A program made the translations under genes and the position numbers. Below, piece by piece: positions 6,408-17,867 of a stretch of DNA of 25,652 bases. Every line of letters starts with the position of its first letter. Position 1 is the first letter of the stretch. Source of the stretch: a virus (Duplodnaviria > Heunggongvirae > Uroviricota > Caudoviricetes); IMG/VR virus record IMGVR_UViG_2531839479_000006; one strand, 5' to 3'. Below the pieces are notes generated by a model. The model made no database searches, was not told where the DNA came from, and saw nothing but the letters and a program-made list of their open reading frames with translations.

Positions 6408-7046
6408 TTAAATATCTTGTTGAATTTTAAAGCATACGCCCAATATGCAAGATAGATCATCCAGCATAATTGAAGGGTAGCGAGGATTCGTGGGGACTAA
6501 AAGAATATCCGGCCCTTCTATCTCCAGTTTACGAATGACAGGTGTTGTGGTCCCTTTGGGTAAGGCAAGGACAATATTTCCTGGTTGTACGGTTCGATCG
6601 GGATCAACAAAAACTGTTGAACCATTTGGGATGGAAACTCCCCCACCAGATGTTGACATACTGTCACTCTCTAGAACAACTGCAAAGGTATTGACCGGGA
6701 TTTCTCCGACAAGCTGCACACAAGAGGTTATTGAGGAATTTTTCATATAATCACTCCAGCTTGCTGCCTGCTGAAGTGATAGTAGCGGAACCGTTTTTAT
6801 CGGCGGTAAAGATAGATCAAGCGAATCACCTGTATTTAACTCTCCTCCATTAAGAAGCCAATTTTCGTTTACTTTCAATATTTTTGCCAGTGAACTTATG
6901 TAACGCGAGGACGGCGCTCCTCCACCGTTCATCCATTGACTTACGGAGCCTTTTGATGCGCCAGTGCCATTGACAAGGTCTTTGCCTTTCAGGTTTAGCG
7001 CATGCATACGTTGGGTTATGCGTTCAGATATAGTTTGCTTGCTCAT
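6408..7046 (-). CDS. CI-like prophage repressor (N-terminal HTH, C-terminal LexA/S24 autopeptidase domain)
   Basis: The C-terminus follows lambda CI closely (ESDSM...VFVDPDRTVQPGNIV...LVPTNPRYPSI and an RKL lysine motif). N-terminal HTH. Divergent from the cro-like gene. Confidence 0.85.
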   Translation of the reverse strand: MSKQTISERITQRMHALNLKGKDLVNGTGASKGSVSQWMNGGGAPSSRYISSLAKILKVNENWLLNGGELNTGDSLDLSLPPIKTVPLLSLQQAASWSDYMKNSSITSCVQLVGEIPVNTFAVVLESDSMSTSGGGVSIPNGSTVFVDPDRTVQPGNIVLALPKGTTTPVIRKLEIEGPDILLVPTNPRYPSIMLDDLSCILGVCFKIQQDI

Positions 7047-7062
7047 GTTTTGATTTTAAAAC
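7047..7062. promoter_or_regulatory. Operator site 1 (GTTTTGATTTTAAAAC), abutting the cI start codon
   Basis: Dyad GTTTT-N6-AAAAC directly adjacent to the cI ATG. A TAAAAT -10-like hexamer on the minus strand lies 6 nt before the ATG, suggesting a leaderless cI transcript. Confidence 0.45.
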
Positions 7063-7092
7063 ACAGATGGTTTTGTTTCTTGACTTTCTTTG

Positions 7093-7108
7093 GTTTTGAT
7101 TATTAAAC
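7093..7108. promoter_or_regulatory. Operator site 2 (GTTTTGATTATTAAAC) overlapping the candidate rightward promoter
   Basis: Second copy of the dyad, overlapping the spacer and -10 region downstream of a TTGACT -35 (7079-7084), upstream of the cro-like gene. Confidence 0.4.
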
Positions 7109-7137
7109 TTTTGACGTTCAGTTTTATGGAGCGACTC

Positions 7138-7368
7138 ATGAAAAAATCAGAAGTATTAGGCTATTTTGGCGGAGTTGTTAAAACAGCCGCAGCTCTAGGA
7201 ACGTCAAAAACCACAGTCAGCATGTGGGGGGAAGAGGTTCCGTGGAAATGGGCGTTGCTAATTCAGGCAGTCACTGCCGGGGCGCTCAAATATGAGTTAC
7301 ACATACCGACGGTTGTCATTCCCGGTTCTGATCATAATCCGCCTTCTAACCAAGGGGGGGATTCATGA
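7138..7368 (+). CDS. Cro-like HTH regulator (YdaS-like)
   Basis: Small ORF divergent from the repressor. Start chosen at MKKSEVLG, which has GGAG 7 nt upstream. HTH-like segment VVKTAAALGTSKTTVSMW. Confidence 0.65.
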   Translation: MKKSEVLGYFGGVVKTAAALGTSKTTVSMWGEEVPWKWALLIQAVTAGALKYELHIPTVVIPGSDHNPPSNQGGDS

Positions 7369-7790
7369 AAATCAAGCATGAACACATCCGCATGGCGATG
7401 AATGCCTGGGCGCATCCGGACGGCGAAAAAGTACCGGCTGCGAAAATTACCAAAGCGTATTTCGAGCTGGGAATGACGTTCCCGGAACTGTATGACGACA
7501 GCCATCCGGAAGCCCTGGCTCGCAATACCCAGAAAATTTTCCGCTGGGTAGAGAAAGACACCCCTGATGCAGTTGAAAAAATTCAGGCGTTGTTACCAGC
7601 GATCGAAAAGGCAATGCCACCTTTGCTGGTGGCCAGAATGCGCAGCCACAGTTCAGCTTATTTTCGGGAGCTGGTGGAGACGCGGGAGCGACTGGTGAGA
7701 GACGCTGATGATTTTGTCGCAGTGGCAATCGCCGGTTTCAATCAGATGAACCGTGGTGGCCCGGCAGGAAATGCTGTGGCAGTACATTGA
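7365..7790 (+). CDS. CII-position protein, 141 aa (YdaT-like)
   Basis: Start overlaps the cro-like stop (ATGA). It sits where lambdoid phages have cII; resemblance to YdaT is by size and N-terminal MKIKHEHI only. Confidence 0.55.
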   Translation: MKIKHEHIRMAMNAWAHPDGEKVPAAKITKAYFELGMTFPELYDDSHPEALARNTQKIFRWVEKDTPDAVEKIQALLPAIEKAMPPLLVARMRSHSSAYFRELVETRERLVRDADDFVAVAIAGFNQMNRGGPAGNAVAVH

Positions 7791-9960: not shown

Positions 9961-10074
9961 TCCAAATCTGAATAATTAAATCCAGCACTGTAAATAAAAT
10001 TTAATCCTTAACCGGAGGGATTTCTGCACCCTCAGAACATCAGGAGGCCGCCCGAAAGGGCGGTGGAGATAATA

Positions 10075-10590
10075 ATGGAAATAACTAAAGAACGATTATT
10101 GGAAATAGCAAATCTTAGTGAAAGGGCATTAAGTGATGGGAGGATTATTTCTCCTGATGCTTATGAATCAGTTACAAGTATAGAAATAATAACGATGGCC
10201 AGGATGCTTCTTGCTCGCTTCAAAAAAGAATATAAAAAACAGGTAGATAGCAATGCTAATATATATGATATTTTGGACTGTTGGGGAGCTTGGGCTGTAG
10301 CTGGAAATAGTTCTATCAACTGGCAGCAAGTGGCTGATAAATATAAAGATGTTGTGCCTCATGGTAAAAAATTGCGTCGCCAGAGCAGCGATGATGAAGG
10401 GCGAGTGATTGATGAGTGGATATTGAGACTCAGACAATATAAAATAGATGAATATGAGTTAATTGTTGCCCACTTTGTAATAGGCGTTTCTTTGAGAAAG
10501 ATCGCAAAAAGAAAGAAATGTGCGGATGGGACTATTAGAAAAAAAATACAAGCAGCGATGGGAGTATTGGAGGGAGTATTAATGCTCTAA
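10075..10590 (+). CDS. Q-like regulator (antiterminator-Q family fold, C-terminal sigma-70 region-4-like HTH), AT-rich
   Basis: ATG with GGAG 6 nt upstream. Shares a W-G-x-W motif and a C-terminal basic HTH (SLRKIAKRKK...TIRKKI) with the prophage Q at 15304-15858 (WGRW ... MSKRKMAELL ... RNRI). Composition matches the AT-rich insertion. Confidence 0.55.
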   Translation: MEITKERLLEIANLSERALSDGRIISPDAYESVTSIEIITMARMLLARFKKEYKKQVDSNANIYDILDCWGAWAVAGNSSINWQQVADKYKDVVPHGKKLRRQSSDDEGRVIDEWILRLRQYKIDEYELIVAHFVIGVSLRKIAKRKKCADGTIRKKIQAAMGVLEGVLML

Positions 10591-10599
10591 CTGTTAGAG

Positions 10600-11820
10600 C
10601 TAAATAAAAATCTTCGCAAGAAATATTCCTGCTGCAATAGAACTTGGTAGCCAAGCCAAATACATAAATAACTTTATTGTATTATCACATTTGGTTTGGC
10701 TCTTTGATAGTTCATATAGAGCCTCATTAATGTCCTTCTTAAGGTCTTCTGGATAATTTTCATTGTTTTTTAGAAAAGGCATAAATGCTATATCTTTAGC
10801 ATGGTAAATATGTTTTAATTGTTTATCCTGATTGAGTAATACCATATATAAAATAAGTGAGCTTAACAATACACCTAATAAAACGAGTAACATTTCAGAT
10901 CTTGATGTTAGTTTTATAATCCCGAAGGATGCCAGTAAAGACACAGGGATTGATAATACTTTTGTCGTCAAATCAGTAATAAGTTTTGAGATTTTTTCAG
11001 CAAACTCTGCTTCAGACTTCGCAATTTCTTTTCGTGCCTTATGGAATGAAAAACCACTCATATACGTGGATAAATTATTTTCAAATAGCTTTACAAATTT
11101 ATCCCAATGGCAAATTAGGTTTTCAAAATCATATTTGTTATCGAGAATAAACTCCACTATGGTATTCCTGAAAATACCTGTTTTTTCTGCTTGATGGGGG
11201 ATTTGGGCGTTTTTTACATCTAAAAGACTCTTGATGATAGCATCATCAATGTCATTTATATTGAGCATCTTAGGTGTAATGCACGTTTCTAAAATAATAG
11301 ATGTTGATTTTGCGTCAGAATCTTTCACGAAAACTAAACGATAATTTGAAGATTCCGATTTTGTATCGTGAAAGTGCGCAATCTCAGCCAGGGAAGAAAT
11401 AATTGCACAAATTTTCTCGATTTTTATAATTTCGTCCGGTTTACTTGAATCAGACGGATGAAAATCCTCATCGATTATGTAATACTCTTTAGGAATTACA
11501 CCTTTCTTGAGTGAGTTTATACAAAGGAACTCTTGAATTGAGTTATAGAAACGTTCTGCTCCATTTTTAGGGGATATGTAAGTGTATGAGAATTTATCTC
11601 CAATTTTAATTGGGTGTGATTTTAAATCGTCTTCGTCAATGAACTCATTATTAATATCAACATCTTCAAAATAACCGTAGGCTTTATGTGAATTTACTAA
11701 CAAGTTTACCAAACGTTGATTGTTATTATTTATTTCAACAGTTGCAGAAAAAGAACGTCCGTCGAATTGGGGCTTCGATGATGCTCTATAAAAATCTACA
11801 ACCGTTGATAAATTAGCCAT
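10600..11820 (-). CDS. Membrane-anchored protein, ~406 aa: soluble N-terminal domain plus 2-3 C-terminal TM helices; candidate effector
   Basis: Long AT-rich ORF. C-terminal hydrophobic helices EMLLVLLGVLLSSLILYMVLL and LFMYLAWLPSSIAAGIFLAKIFI. Its ATG lies inside the last codons of the upstream gene (ATGGCTAA), indicating translational coupling. Confidence 0.8.
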   Translation of the reverse strand: MANLSTVVDFYRASSKPQFDGRSFSATVEINNNNQRLVNLLVNSHKAYGYFEDVDINNEFIDEDDLKSHPIKIGDKFSYTYISPKNGAERFYNSIQEFLCINSLKKGVIPKEYYIIDEDFHPSDSSKPDEIIKIEKICAIISSLAEIAHFHDTKSESSNYRLVFVKDSDAKSTSIILETCITPKMLNINDIDDAIIKSLLDVKNAQIPHQAEKTGIFRNTIVEFILDNKYDFENLICHWDKFVKLFENNLSTYMSGFSFHKARKEIAKSEAEFAEKISKLITDLTTKVLSIPVSLLASFGIIKLTSRSEMLLVLLGVLLSSLILYMVLLNQDKQLKHIYHAKDIAFMPFLKNNENYPEDLKKDINEALYELSKSQTKCDNTIKLFMYLAWLPSSIAAGIFLAKIFI

Positions 11821-12955
11821 TTTCTTTTCCACTATCCCTTATTTTTAAATTTTCTTTTACCACAGCGCTTAGTTTAGCCTTAAATTCAGCTGGTAAGTTT
11901 GTAAATGATAATCTTCCAGTTGTTTCATCGTACCACACATCATCATCAGCTGTCACTCCAAGGAGAGACTTGTCAAAATTAAATCCAATCTCATCAGTCT
12001 TAAAGGTGATGTTTTTAATGTCTTTCAACGCCCGTTTACTGATAACAAATTCAGTTGGGATTCTCACATTTTCACTATTTAAAAAAAGAATTAATTCGTG
12101 AGTGTAAGATTCTTTGGTAGACTCATCTAAATTTGTCATGTGACGTGCTGCAATTACTTCAATATCACTCAATCGGGCTGATAAATTTTTAGCTGCTTGT
12201 GTGTCTAAATATGCAATAACGTCATGTTTAAATCTATTGGCACATGCTTTAAGTTCTGGTTTTTGGTTAAAAAATTGTTTTGCGACAGTTGGTAGTTTTT
12301 TTGTGGCTTTTGCTGCTGCAAGTGATTTGTCGCATCCTATTGCTGCAATAAAATATGCTGATGTGGATTGACCCACTCCTTTACTTACGAAACTTAGATA
12401 ACTTAAGTCAATTTTTTCAGACTCATCAGCAGTTTTATATTGTTGGTAGAGATTGAAATTTATTCTTGCTGCTTGGTGTATTTTGGATAGATCCAAATGG
12501 ATCATTTCTTCAGGTTCGAGTTTGTTGCTGATAGTAACACCATTTTTCTTTTTAATCATTGCAATTAAAAAGAATTTATTGTTATTTACAATATAGTCAC
12601 AAAACACAATAAAACCACCAGATGACCAAGGTTCTTCTTTGGCTTTTTTTACAAGTTGCTTCATCACTTCAATAGAAAAAGGCACAAACTTTTCATTAAT
12701 GTTATCCTCTGACTGAGAATACTCTTCAAATATTGATGGCACAGGCCCTTGTTCTGTTTTCTCCTCTTTAAAAACGCCATAATGTGCAGAATTGCCTTTG
12801 GTTCCATATAAAGATGAAATGTCTTGAATAAGTTTTATAACAATTGGATTGGTTTTATCGAGAGGAGTGGATCTAAGCTGATACGGCTTAGAAAAATCAA
12901 AATCCTTTTTTGCTTCTTTAATTAGTTCATGAACGATAACTTGCTTAATTTCCAT
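11813..12955 (-). CDS. NdpA/YejK-family (nucleoid-associated protein, 37-kDa family) homologue, diverged, 380 aa
   Basis: Blocks match E. coli YejK as I recall it: IVHELIK vs ALHQLIK, SGGFIVFCDY vs DGGFVLFCHY, YLSFVSKGVGQ vs YLTFLKGRVGR, and the C-terminal GFNFD...LLG...D.TTGRLSF vs [30 protein letters not shown] upstream. Confidence 0.8.
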   Translation of the reverse strand: MEIKQVIVHELIKEAKKDFDFSKPYQLRSTPLDKTNPIVIKLIQDISSLYGTKGNSAHYGVFKEEKTEQGPVPSIFEEYSQSEDNINEKFVPFSIEVMKQLVKKAKEEPWSSGGFIVFCDYIVNNNKFFLIAMIKKKNGVTISNKLEPEEMIHLDLSKIHQAARINFNLYQQYKTADESEKIDLSYLSFVSKGVGQSTSAYFIAAIGCDKSLAAAKATKKLPTVAKQFFNQKPELKACANRFKHDVIAYLDTQAAKNLSARLSDIEVIAARHMTNLDESTKESYTHELILFLNSENVRIPTEFVISKRALKDIKNITFKTDEIGFNFDKSLLGVTADDDVWYDETTGRLSFTNLPAEFKAKLSAVVKENLKIRDSGKENG

Positions 12956-13045
12956 ATTGAAAATATCACCTATGTTATTGTTAGATCGTTTGTGATTTTT
13001 TTACCATCACAACAACGACACAAAATCATTAATGCGTACGCAAAA

Positions 13046-13074
13046 ATTTTGAATAATGAGTTAATCAATGTCAA
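13046..13074 (-). promoter_or_regulatory. Candidate promoter for the NdpA-like/membrane-protein operon
   Basis: Minus-strand TTGACA (13069-13074), a 17-bp spacer, then CAAAAT (13046-13051), about 90 nt upstream of the NdpA-like ATG. Pattern match only. Confidence 0.3.
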
Positions 13075-13230
13075 TAGTTAAACACACTACCGCTGTAGAG
13101 TTGTTGTCATTAAATTGCGTCATAAGTAGAATTGCTGCGGGTGCTTGAGGCTATCTGTCTCAGGCATGAACACCAAAAGGCAGATAGAGAAAAGCCCCAC
13201 CCGACTATAAATCGAAGTGAGGCCAGTCTT

Positions 13231-13437
13231 ATGTCTCGACAACTGAAGATTAGCCTCTTACGTGCCGAAAGGCAAGGAGAAGCAGGCTATGAAGCAGCAA
13301 AAGGCGATGTTAATCGCCCTGATCGTCATCTGTTTAACCGTCATAGTGACGGCACTGATAACGAGGAAAGACCTCTGCGAGGTACGAATCCGAACCGGCC
13401 AGACGGAGGTCGCTGTCTTCACAGCTTACGAACCTGA
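13231..13437 (+). CDS. mok: Mok-like overlapping reading frame of the hok locus
   Basis: ORF starting MSRQLK with GAAGTGAGG upstream, overlapping hok in another frame as in hok/sok loci. Confidence 0.45.
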   Translation: MSRQLKISLLRAERQGEAGYEAAKGDVNRPDRHLFNRHSDGTDNEERPLRGTNPNRPDGGRCLHSLRT

Positions 13438-13444
13438 GGAGTAA
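13289..13444 (+). CDS. hok: Hok/Gef-family type I toxin, 51 aa
   Basis: MKQQKAMLIALIVICLTVIVTALITRKDLCEVRIRTGQTEVAVFTAYEPEE is near-identical to the Hok/HokD family sequence as I recall it. AGGAGA 8 nt upstream. Confidence 0.85.
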   Translation: MKQQKAMLIALIVICLTVIVTALITRKDLCEVRIRTGQTEVAVFTAYEPEE

Positions 13445-13513
13445 GAGACCAGGTGAGGGAGAAATCCCTCGCCACCTCTGATGAGTCAGGCATCCTCAAC
13501 GCACCCGCACTTA

Positions 13514-13539
13514 ACCCGCTTCGGCGGGTTTTGTTTTTT
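13514..13539 (+). terminator. Rho-independent terminator downstream of hok
   Basis: CCCGC-TTCG-GCGGG stem-loop followed by TTTTGTTTTTT. Confidence 0.6.
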
Positions 13540-13611
13540 CCTGGCATTCTGGTTTACAATTCGCACGCCAGCCTGAACAACTGGCACCTGCTGCGCCAGC
13601 AGAGACAACCG

Positions 13612-15307: not shown

Positions 15308-15858
15308 TCGTAAATATGATATACCCGGAAATTACAGGCAAAAGCGGCGAGCATTTACGTCTAAAAACGCTGGAAGCCGTCTGGATCCAGGGGAAATTAC
15401 GGATGTGGGGGCGTTGGTCGTATATAGGTGGTGGCAAACCAGGAAATATGTTCAATCAGTTGCTGGCATCCAAAAAACTGACAAAAACCGCAATCAATGA
15501 AGCCCTGCGTAGAATCAGGGAGTCAGGGATTGATAAACCAGAGCTGGAAGCATTCTTGCGAGAGATGATCGCTGGCAGACAGAAGAGCTGGTTGTCTCAC
15601 TGTACTGATGCAGAGGCGTTACGCATTGATGGGGTGATAAGTAAAGCGCTTGCACGTTATCCTGGATTGATTGATATCCTGCGGCAAAGGTACGAAGGGC
15701 GGGGGATGAGTAAACGCAAAATGGCTGAATTGTTGAATGAGGTTCACCCTGAGTGGTGCTATGCAACATGCCGCAATCGTATAGATATGTGGCTGAGAAT
15801 AGCTGAGTTTATTCTGTATCCACTGATGCGAGATGCATTTTCTTTTACTGACGCTTAG
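15304..15858 (+). CDS. Late gene antiterminator Q
   Basis: Overlaps the rusA stop. Followed by a roughly 190-bp leader and a strong intrinsic terminator, as for lambda PR'/qut/tR'. Contains a WGRW motif and a C-terminal HTH. Confidence 0.65.
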   Translation: MIVNMIYPEITGKSGEHLRLKTLEAVWIQGKLRMWGRWSYIGGGKPGNMFNQLLASKKLTKTAINEALRRIRESGIDKPELEAFLREMIAGRQKSWLSHCTDAEALRIDGVISKALARYPGLIDILRQRYEGRGMSKRKMAELLNEVHPEWCYATCRNRIDMWLRIAEFILYPLMRDAFSFTDA

Positions 15859-17617: not shown

Positions 17618-17693
17618 GGCCCTTTAGCTCAGTGGTGAGAGCGAGCGACTCATAATCGCCAGGTCGCTGGTTCAAATCCAGCAAGGGCCACCA
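17618..17693 (+). tRNA. tRNA with CAU anticodon, Ile2-like (lysidine type)
   Basis: Cloverleaf folded by hand: acceptor GGCCCTT/AAGGGCC, D-arm GCTC/GAGC, anticodon loop CTCATAA, T-loop TTCAAAT, CCA encoded. Close to E. coli ileX as I recall it. Confidence 0.85.
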
Positions 17694-17700
17694 TCACATA

Positions 17701-17777
17701 CCGCCATTAGCTCATCAGGATAGAGCGCCAGCCTTCGAAGCTGGTTGCGCGGGGTTCGAGTCCTCGATGGCGGTCCA
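17701..17777 (+). tRNA. tRNA-Arg (anticodon UCG)
   Basis: Acceptor CCGCCAT/ATGGCGG (C1-G72), D-arm GCTC/GAGC, anticodon stem CCAGC/GCTGG with loop CTTCGAA, T-loop TTCGAGT, CCA encoded. Confidence 0.75.
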
Positions 17778-17790
17778 TTATCTGTACCCT

Positions 17791-17867
17791 GCGTTGTTAG
17801 CTCAGCCGGACAGAGCAATTGCCTTCTAAGCAATCGGTCACTGGTTCGAATCCAGTACAACGCGCCA
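17791..17867 (+). tRNA. tRNA-Arg (anticodon UCU)
   Basis: Acceptor GCGTTGT/ACAACGC, anticodon stem ATTGC/GCAAT with loop CTTCTAA, T-loop TTCGAAT, CCA encoded. Confidence 0.85.

Follow-up and report, generated by a model that had tools for sequence, protein, structure and literature searches.

A long Q-family gene, a conserved core and exchangeable cargo in a Rac/Qin-like prophage: a possible Q-gated defence cassette

Why would a prophage that has its own Q for the late genes also keep a second Q-family gene outside its late region? This question is raised by a 25,652-nucleotide (nt) stretch of viral DNA (IMG/VR record IMGVR_UViG_2531839479_000006), referred to here as the window, which is identical to part of a Rac/Qin-like lambdoid prophage of Escherichia coli strain 602354. 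The gene in question encodes a Q-family protein of 171 amino acids (aa), hereafter the long Q. A reading of the letters alone, i.e., the original prediction, had taken this gene for a second Q-like regulator carried by an insertion, and had suggested that it forms an autonomous regulatory circuit with a hairpin in front of it and a palindrome behind it. The present comparisons point to another partner, i.e., a conserved core at the promoter of the neighbouring convergent genes. The long Q gene would be the left edge of a module, followed by convergent, exchangeable anti-phage cargo and by the core, and this arrangement seems to copy a QuuD-type late-control region. The module appears to have moved into the early-right operon of a Rac/Qin-like prophage that has a separate Q for its late genes. 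The features which carry the argument are as follows.

10065 to 10068, plus strand: GGAG Shine-Dalgarno sequence of the long Q gene, 6 nt before the ATG, read from the sequence.
10075 to 10590, plus strand: long Q-family gene, 171 aa, ATG at 10075 and TAA at 10588-10590, assigned by PF06530 and by the fold of the Q protein of phage 21 (Q21).
10600 to 11832, minus strand: distal cargo gene, 406-410 aa, DS-1B-like below the cutoff (NF053869, PHROG 5023).
11813 to 12955, minus strand: proximal cargo gene, 380 aa, NA37/YejK-type, DS-1A-like below the cutoff (PF04245, 2e-51; NF053868).
13030 to 13045, either strand: conserved core TAATGCGTACGCAAAA, containing the perfect palindrome TGCGTACGCA at 13033-13042.
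15316 to 15858, plus strand: the prophage's own Q, DUF1133 family, in the canonical position after RusA (PF06576, 2e-101).

The long Q-family protein

The 171-aa reading frame with the start and stop codons listed above was found to be real. Its AT-richness, which had also been pointed out, was seen as a GC content of 0.31-0.40 over positions of about 10000-13200 versus about 0.5 in the flanks. The likeness to Q was borne out more strongly than had been proposed, by matches to PF06530, to PHROG 79 and to the Q21 fold. The PF06530 (Phage_antitermQ) match covered residues 62-170 with 104.5 bits, versus a gathering cutoff of 26 (E = 4.3e-30), and PHROG 79, annotated as Q-like, matched at 1e-30. 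A weak match to region 4 of extracytoplasmic function (ECF) sigma-70 factors was also obtained in profile search; the hidden Markov model comparison that had been suggested as a check gave a relationship to the Q and sigma-70 region 4 families.

Q21 was the only solved relative recognized by sequence with phmmer. The AlphaFold2 model of the long Q, built with 44 homologues, showed a predicted local distance difference test score of 81 overall and about 90 in the Q domain. The top 12 PDB matches of this model in Foldseek were all Q21 (probability 1.0), with target-normalised template modelling scores of 0.44-0.59 over 118-134 aligned columns, and ECF sigma region 4 followed. By sequence and model, the long Q is assigned to the Q21/QuuD-type antiterminator family, with a predicted body like sigma region 4. 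Antitermination on RNA polymerase (RNAP) would be its activity, as predicted from family and fold. The Q family and the annotation of the gene are already known, i.e., the identical gene in strain 602354 (NZ_CP025847) has been named "antiterminator Q family protein" by the Prokaryotic Genome Annotation Pipeline (PGAP). No PADLOC model matched the long Q or the two cargo proteins of the window.

The long Q was rightly described as a second Q beside the prophage's own, which is the DUF1133 Q at 15316-15858. The W-G-x-W motif is common to both, i.e., WGAW in the long Q and WGRW in the DUF1133 Q. Their great divergence was also confirmed, since BLASTP gave E = 0.04 and hhalign a probability of 4%, which is marginal. 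The DUF1133 Q just reaches PF06530 with 27.8 bits and belongs to PHROG 753, annotated as Q-like. Instead of the canonical position at the end of the nin genes, the long Q gene occupies a site in the early-right operon, with the replication genes to its left and hok/sok to its right.

Two parts were recognized in the protein. Residues 1-61 form a clade-specific N-terminal extension, and residues 62-171 are of the Q21/QuuD type, with WGAW, a torus-forming segment and HT[loop]H. The homologues fell in two tiers. The first consists of full-length proteins of 170-185 aa with at least 64% identity, found only in E. coli and Salmonella. The second consists of short Q proteins of about 115 aa from many Enterobacterales, which match only residues 62-171 with 50-60% identity. 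Within the long clade, conservation is highest in the 60 extra residues at the N-terminus, and when this extension was searched alone, only shortened copies of the same gene were found and no other relatives. In the alignment, the torus and HT[loop]H residues are almost unchanged between the long and short forms; P95, K99, R101, Q103, D107, G109, I112 and D113, in the torus/RNAP-contact segment, are invariant or nearly so. At residue 104 (10384-10386), nearly all long and short relatives have Cys, but the window copy and its closest relative, P0003, have Ser (RRQC to RRQS); Cys149, by contrast, does not vary.

Q21 (PDB 6P18, 6P1A, 6JNX) is likewise a PF06530 protein, and the long Q shares with it the predicted fold like sigma region 4, with HT[loop]H and the W-G-A-W helix. 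However, the identity is 16-19%, the long Q has the 60-aa extension, and about 37 C-terminal residues of Q21 have no counterpart in it. Residues 62-171 are closest to QuuD of DLP12 and its relatives of about 115 aa, of which the relatives are 50-60% identical and QuuD itself is 32% identical.

Among 13 distinct coding sequences, the ratio of nonsynonymous to synonymous substitution rates (dN/dS) was 0.33 in the extension, 0.24 in the WGxW/torus part (residues 62-120) and 0.25 in the HTH/C-terminal part. Because the ratio is 0.24-0.33 in all three regions, the whole protein is considered to be under purifying selection. Synonymous divergence (dS) in the same set rises along the gene, i.e., 0.12, 0.39 and 0.98, and homology breakpoints were located inside the gene at 10415 and 10569-10579. 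The gradient fits the breakpoints if the 3' part of the gene travels with the cargo and the 5' part has been shared recently. By Megablast, the 5' part was present in 68 of 5426 complete E. coli genomes. It is reasonable to consider the long Q a working paralogue of the QuuD/Q21 late-gene antiterminators with 60 more residues as an N-terminal domain.

The conserved core, the cargo and its slot

At least five convergent cargoes with no relation to each other were found beside the long Q in Rac/Qin-like prophages, in every case after the replication module and before hok.

Type A: 410-aa protein and NA37 protein, in the window and in Salmonella.
Type B: 159-aa protein and DUF6731 protein.
Type C: a single 332-aa protein.
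Type D: 477-aa protein and NA37-like protein.
Type E: three genes.

A separate canonical Q, either DUF1133 or lambda-type PF03589, lies downstream in all annotated long-Q cases with that region in view. The original prediction that the gene is carried by the insertion holds in so far as the gene is AT-rich like the cargo. However, it is a constant partner of many cargoes and not a part of the DS-1-like insertion.

The upstream regions of all five cargo types, which are otherwise unrelated, contain TTTTGCGTACGCA at about 45-85 nt from the first cargo start codon, and the core is a conservation island amid this unrelated sequence. It is described as a 17-bp element, for which a 12-mer was used in the count per locus and a 16-mer in the motif-first scan. 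The 12-mer occurred exactly once in each long-Q locus (18/18), always on the cargo strand, and once in the window. When viral contigs were scanned with the G form of the core, a convergent Q-family ORF was found at 0.6-3.0 kb on the cargo side in 62 of the 63 testable loci. With the A form, 26 loci had a convergent Q-family ORF (10 long and 16 short), and the 11 exceptions were all environmental-metagenome contigs, as expected of chance 16-mer matches. The viral-contig loci behind these counts, and behind those of the slot given below, are partly redundant. At the sequence level, the link between Q and the neighbouring operon which had been proposed was upheld in this form, i.e., a core at the cargo promoter in every cargo type, almost always with a convergent Q-family gene.

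On the cargo strand the core reads TTTTGCGTACGCATTA, which contains the -35-like hexamer TTGCGT. Because 43 of 86 distinct units have a good -10 hexamer at a distance of exactly 17 nt from TTGCGT, the core is predicted to supply the -35 of the cargo promoter. Other spacings were mostly found in 0-7 units, the highest being 18, 13 and 12. Among the five cargo types beside the long Q, four conform, with 17-18 nt between the hexamers. The core is also proposed as the Q-binding element, to which the long Q would bind via HT[loop]H. In type A only, one more promoter was called.

13046 to 13074, minus strand: extra sigma-70-like promoter, TTGACA-17-CAAAAT, from a consensus scan (10/12 positions).

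The short-Q relatives were sampled in Enterobacter, Citrobacter, Shigella, Erwinia, Lonsdalea and Providencia. At 15 of 16 loci, one or two convergent genes, which vary in size, come after Q, and these are followed by TTTGCGTACGC(G/A) and then by lysis genes on the plus strand. On the late-gene strand of these canonical loci, the core, which lies in the late-promoter region, is followed by a conserved leader of about 55 nt (...CGCGTACGCAAAAACTATCGTAACCTGTTAAGAGTGG...) and a classical intrinsic terminator. No confident assignment of the precise PR' (-35, -10 and pause element) could be made on this strand. The order Q, PR'/qut, tR' and late genes is the textbook arrangement (bioRxiv 10.1101/651190); the short-Q loci match it, with a moron slot added between Q and the promoter. 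DLP12 of E. coli K-12 has the same design, with the variant palindrome TACGTACGTA between the convergent nmpC and essD. The quuD-nmpC-essD region is like the window in having Q, a convergent moron and a palindromic core. However, the short QuuD forms have no N-terminal extension and lie at the canonical site after the nin genes/RusA, and their core leads to leader, terminator and lysis genes, whereas in the window hok/sok and the nin genes come after the core, and no such leader has been conserved.

The cargo of the window resembles DS-1, a system reported with DefensePredictor (Science 2026, PMC13092281), in which an NA37/YejK protein is also encoded with a partner of about 400 aa. Both cargo genes match the DS-1 models, and the layout of a YejK/NA37 protein with a co-directional partner is present, the genes at 10600-11832 and 11813-12955 overlapping. 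Because the scores are far below the NCBIfam equivalog cutoffs, i.e., 101 bits versus 330 for NF053868 and 105 versus 315 for NF053869, the pair is labelled as a distant DS-1-like relative and not as DS-1 proper. Genuine DS-1 was found in the Q-core slot of other phages, with 451 and 375 bits, above these cutoffs. For the cargoes of types B-E, PADLOC gave nothing significant (three marginal matches at E above 1e-3), nor did NCBIfam (two weak matches below cutoff).

Over 135 distinct intervals, the slot between Q and core held 74 cargo protein clusters in about 43 architectures. Among the slot proteins were a KwaB-like protein with a membrane partner, several NA37 pairs, one of them with a RelA/SpoT partner, a GmrSD-like protein (GmrSD_N) and an AAA_15/21 ATPase. 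Judged by this content, the slot is a predicted defence hotspot. Most architectures in short-Q slots had no Pfam, NCBIfam or PADLOC annotation. Many slot pairs combine a protein of about 300 aa with one of about 160-190 aa in the membrane, and so recall RexAB in their layout. No convincing terminal repeats or insertion-sequence-like ends were found around the cassette, and junction mapping versus short-Q loci with related cargo was unproductive, those cargoes being only 47-72% identical.

The flanking RNA structures and the prophage setting

The structures at the two ends of the long Q gene and the neighbours of the module are listed here.

9966 to 10064, plus strand: widespread linker between genes of the lambdoid early-right operon, with the 3' base of the hairpin as its last position, not confined to the long Q.
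10047 to 10064, plus strand: GC-rich hairpin with a GAAA (GNRA) tetraloop, CCGCCC-GAAA-GGGCGG at 10048-10063, with a G.U pair 10047/10064.
10584 to 10600, either strand: palindrome GCTCTAAC-T-GTTAGAGC at the junction of the convergent stops, a weak stem.
10606 to 10632, minus strand: terminator-like hairpin and T-run, overlapping the last codons of the distal cargo gene, from a consensus scan only.
13104 to 13540, plus strand: hok/sok locus, right-hand neighbour of the module (Rfam sok, 122 bits; promoter and terminator scans; PGAP), with the four parts that follow.
13104 to 13132, plus strand: hok/sok promoter, from the promoter scan.
13139 to 13294, plus strand: sok/hok RNA element (Rfam sok, 122 bits).
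13290 to 13445, plus strand: hokD, from the PGAP annotation.
13513 to 13540, plus strand: strong intrinsic terminator after hokD, from the terminator scan.

The 5' hairpin is present as described, with -15.2 kcal/mol and z = -3.8, and none of 200 shuffles was as stable. Its proposed role as a dedicated control of the long Q was not upheld, as thousands of prophages have the same generic linker, with the hairpin at its end, in front of other genes. The linker stretch (about 95 nt) was found by Megablast in 2065 of the 5426 E. coli genomes, versus 68 with the long Q gene. In alignment with three other prophages, the sequences diverge directly after ...GGGCGGT, and different small genes follow the linker there. 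The module-specific sequence begins at 10065, i.e., at the first base of the GGAG. Because the long Q has this Shine-Dalgarno sequence of its own, the hairpin is read as a generic feature of the junction linker.

The sequence AGGAGG lies at 10042-10047, just 5' of the stem. In 120 linker copies from viral contigs (IMG/VR), the start codon is usually 4-9 nt past the stem, and the commonest variants have no Shine-Dalgarno sequence between stem and start, with AGGAGG just 5' of the stem. Stem-bridged split ribosome-binding sites have been described for genes 38 and 25 of phage T4. The probable role of the hairpin is likewise to bridge the upstream AGGAGG to the start codon, or else to stabilise the mRNA. 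Over 27 hairpin variants, 91% of cells were paired, the changes being mostly C-to-U wobbles with one compensatory change, and the alternative loop GGCA remains GNRA; no covariation measure across these variants went beyond shuffles. In three orthologous long-Q leaders the hairpin is weakened or lost (-10.8, -12.0 and -4.1 kcal/mol), the last being the disrupted hairpin of the Salmonella orthologue.

No Rfam match was obtained for the hairpin. A boxB/nut reading was rejected, as no arginine-rich N-like ORF was found to the left of the repressor and the hairpin did not recur, even with three mismatches allowed. The linker also has a conserved near-palindrome, CTGAAT-AATTAA-ATTCAG, at about 9969-9986 with one mismatch, and a second conserved stem-loop, GGAGGG...CCCTC, at about 10015-10036. 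In thousands of lambdoid prophages, the linker lies where two modules of the early-right operon meet.

The 3' palindrome had been said to span both convergent stop codons. It does contain the plus-strand stop (10588-10590), but only one base of the minus-strand stop (10602-10600). As RNA it forms an AU-rich stem of 7 bp, with -7.8 kcal/mol (z -1.0) on the minus strand and -11.1 kcal/mol (z -2.0) on the plus strand. Seven perfect palindromes with 8-bp arms occur in the window, versus 2.6 +/- 2.0 in shuffles. The palindrome has no stable GC-rich stem with a U-run, as an intrinsic terminator would, and the terminator scan did not list it. What lies at the junction of Q and cargo depends on the cargo type: strong bidirectional terminators (-20 to -27 kcal/mol) in C and D, nothing of the kind in B and E, and in A the weak palindrome, whose Salmonella version is even weaker. 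Being weak and confined to cargo type A, while other types have strong terminators or none, the palindrome was dropped as a part of the circuit. It is at most a weak or degenerate remnant of a terminator.

On the other side of the module, the terminator of hok lies about 480 nt downstream of the core. A minus-strand terminator-like hairpin was noted at 13181-13203 in the hok/sok leader, upstream of the cargo promoter. It is probably the terminator of Sok RNA, and would insulate the cargo from leftward transcription. A weak isrK-like Rfam match (13453-13534, plus strand; 24 bits, E = 0.029) was below the gathering score and overlaps the hok terminator hairpin at 13513-13530, so it is probably a false positive driven by the terminator and gives no ground for an AntQ/isrK identity. 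AntQ of Salmonella Gifsy-1 (Hershko-Shalev et al. 2016, PMC4825925) is comparable as a prophage Q-like protein with effects beyond the late genes. However, it is a canonical late Q of about 226 aa, encoded by the last gene of the nin operon directly upstream of isrK, and not an orthologue of the long Q, which was thus ruled out as an AntQ.

Other observations concern the prophage as a whole. In the identical RefSeq record, a Cro/CI-family gene (about 7138-7381) is annotated as frameshifted, and the LexA-family repressor is annotated with only 339 nt though a 212-aa ORF is open at 6408-7046. The immunity region of the window (6408-7381) may be partly defective or mis-annotated. Related long-Q prophages have a ParE/PaaA2 toxin-antitoxin pair beside the repressor gene, whereas the prophage of the window has none. 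Three tRNA genes (Ile, Arg and Arg) were located at about 17618-17867, between the DNA methyltransferase and holin genes and downstream of the DUF1133 Q, an arrangement which resembles Stx-type lambdoid phages.

Possible roles of the long Q

In the favoured reading, the long Q binds the core and gates the cargo promoter as a negative, state-dependent switch, and perhaps also serves as a rightward relay. This reading is held tentatively, being almost evenly balanced against its being wrong. A negative switch is preferred because only the core is conserved in the long-Q loci and the cargo is the sole transcription unit that is consistently adjacent. In the lysogen, the early operon would be repressed and no long Q made, so that the cargo promoter would be free and the defence on. 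In the scan, no promoter or terminator was predicted between the upstream genes and the long Q gene, and because of this the long Q is expected to be made on induction from the early-right operon. The early-right transcript would then give long Q, which would occupy the core and shut the overlapping cargo promoter. As the divergent late promoter and the cargo promoter overlap, both could not be occupied at once, and occupancy by Q would turn the cargo off. Such a shut-off would spare the lytic growth of the phage itself from cargo of the abortive-infection type. It is less certain that the long Q would also load on rightward RNAP at the core and let it pass the hok terminator, in the direction of the nin genes and the true Q. 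The switch and the relay could operate together.

The DS systems were validated as same-strand transcription units with native promoters and without a convergent Q gene (PMC13092281). Because of this, the long Q is unlikely to be a required activator of the cargo. The autonomous circuit of the original prediction is therefore plausible only as a negative or state-dependent switch.

A precedent by analogy for turning off a prophage defence gene in the lytic cycle may be seen in phi80. The TaiEcA/AtiEcA "non-contiguous operon" (He et al. 2024, PMC11364771) likewise contains an antisense prophage defence gene, TaiEcA, within the Q-dependent late region, and from western blots on induction its authors proposed a switch-off in the lytic cycle, at Q-dependent late transcription. 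In phi80, however, the silencing was attributed to transcription across the gene, whereas occupancy of the cargo -35 site by a dedicated extra Q is proposed for the window.

Several points weigh against the switch. The first concerns the window itself, i.e., in type A the -10 at 17 nt is poor (TGTCGT) and the upstream promoter listed above is predicted instead; in a cargo transcript made from it, the core would span about +1 to +12. Every promoter assigned here is a consensus match within AT-rich DNA, and we infer both the Q-binding role of the core and the sign of the regulation. Q21 binds a direct repeat of 8-bp subsites at its late promoter (bioRxiv 10.1101/651190), whereas the element associated with the long Q is palindromic and its gene does not lie at a late promoter. 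When the core variant (A/G) was compared with Q residues, mutual information recovered only the split of the long and short clades. In the window, Ser stands at residue 104 in place of a Cys shared by nearly all relatives, long or short. Purifying selection has been kept on the torus segment, the part that contacts RNAP; a simple repressor would have no need of this. Of the components of a possible qut site, the window shows the core at 13030-13045 and, about 480 nt further on, the hok terminator. The leader of about 55 nt and the proximal terminator, which accompany the core in canonical phages, are not conserved in the long-Q loci, and because of this canonical antitermination at the core is doubtful.

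As the main alternative, the relay could be taken alone. According to this explanation, the long Q carries rightward RNAP from the core across the hok terminator to the nin genes and the true Q, and so restores the early-to-late cascade which the convergent cassette, with its terminators, has interrupted. The torus/RNAP-contact segment is nearly invariant with the canonical Qs (dN/dS 0.24), and the order of Q, core, terminator and downstream genes mirrors PR'-tR', with a strong terminator after hokD and ahead of the nin genes. In types C and D, transcription coming from PR would be stopped by the strong bidirectional terminators that separate the long Q from the cargo. By eye, -10-like hexamers can be made out right of the core in types A, D and E, close to where canonical loci have them. 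However, the canonical leader is absent, and no consistent promoter with a pause element could be defined right of the core. Moreover, related prophages without the module keep hok between the early genes and the nin region, and evidently manage without a relay. As the sole role of the long Q, the relay is considered unlikely.

The recombination seen in the gene allows a third explanation, in which the long Q and the core persist mainly as flanking homology for cargo exchange, with no regulatory tie and with any activity of the long Q being incidental. The rise of dS (0.12, 0.39, 0.98) and the breakpoints indicate that recombination uses the gene as an arm, shortened copies exist, and genuine DS-1 works without any Q. 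However, homology arms do not need an intact reading frame, whereas full-length copies are kept across E. coli and Salmonella, and purifying selection is seen in all three regions, including the clade-specific extension. A mere passenger is therefore quite improbable.

Finally, it is highly improbable that the long Q is itself part of the defence, acting in trans on superinfecting QuuD-type phages which share the core, by triggering their late genes early or blocking them while the DUF1133-dependent late genes of its own prophage are untouched: the core is common to many such phages, the host prophages use another Q (DUF1133 or PF03589), the gene is always beside defence cargo, and over-expressed AntQ disturbs termination globally (PMC4825925), but the gene, being in the early-right operon and lacking a separate predicted promoter, is probably not expressed in lysogens, the core in cis beside every cargo is left unexplained, and no PADLOC model matches the long Q.

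The gating of the cargo promoter by Q, which is the favoured reading, can be extended to QuuD-type phages in general. In these phages, the interval between Q and the late promoter would be a defence hotspot, and one element would serve both as the Q-utilisation core and as the -35 of the divergent defence promoter. The Q of the phage would automatically turn the cargo off at commitment to lysis. The long Q would be a dedicated copy of this switch with an extended N-terminus, which would have moved with the cargo slot into the early operon of an unrelated lineage of prophages, as a portable "Q-gated defence cassette". This wider proposal is possible, though rather doubtful as a whole. In the literature search, no defence hotspot between Q and the late promoter was found described and nothing relevant on DUF6731 or the DLP12 late promoter; a prior description is possible. 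Within the literature searched, four points appear to be undescribed: a long Q clade with an N-terminal extension, its location away from the late region, its pairing in every case with exchangeable defence cargo and the core, and the double role of that core.

Prophage defence systems, many of which are of the abortive-infection type, must be kept from harming the lytic growth of their own phage. To our knowledge, only a few solutions to this self-immunity problem are known, e.g., BstA/aba and phi80 Tai/Ati. If it is true that the defence promoter is gated by Q and the core, the problem would have a solution that is simple, modular and widespread, and this would also explain why dozens of unrelated systems gather in one slot. 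The motif TTTGCGTACGC(A/G) beside a PF06530 gene marks a rich site to mine for new defence systems, and the long Q is a natural experiment on a Q-family protein separated from the late operon. The comparisons made here suggest that the long Q may be a built-in switch which ties the expression of defence genes to the life cycle of the phage.

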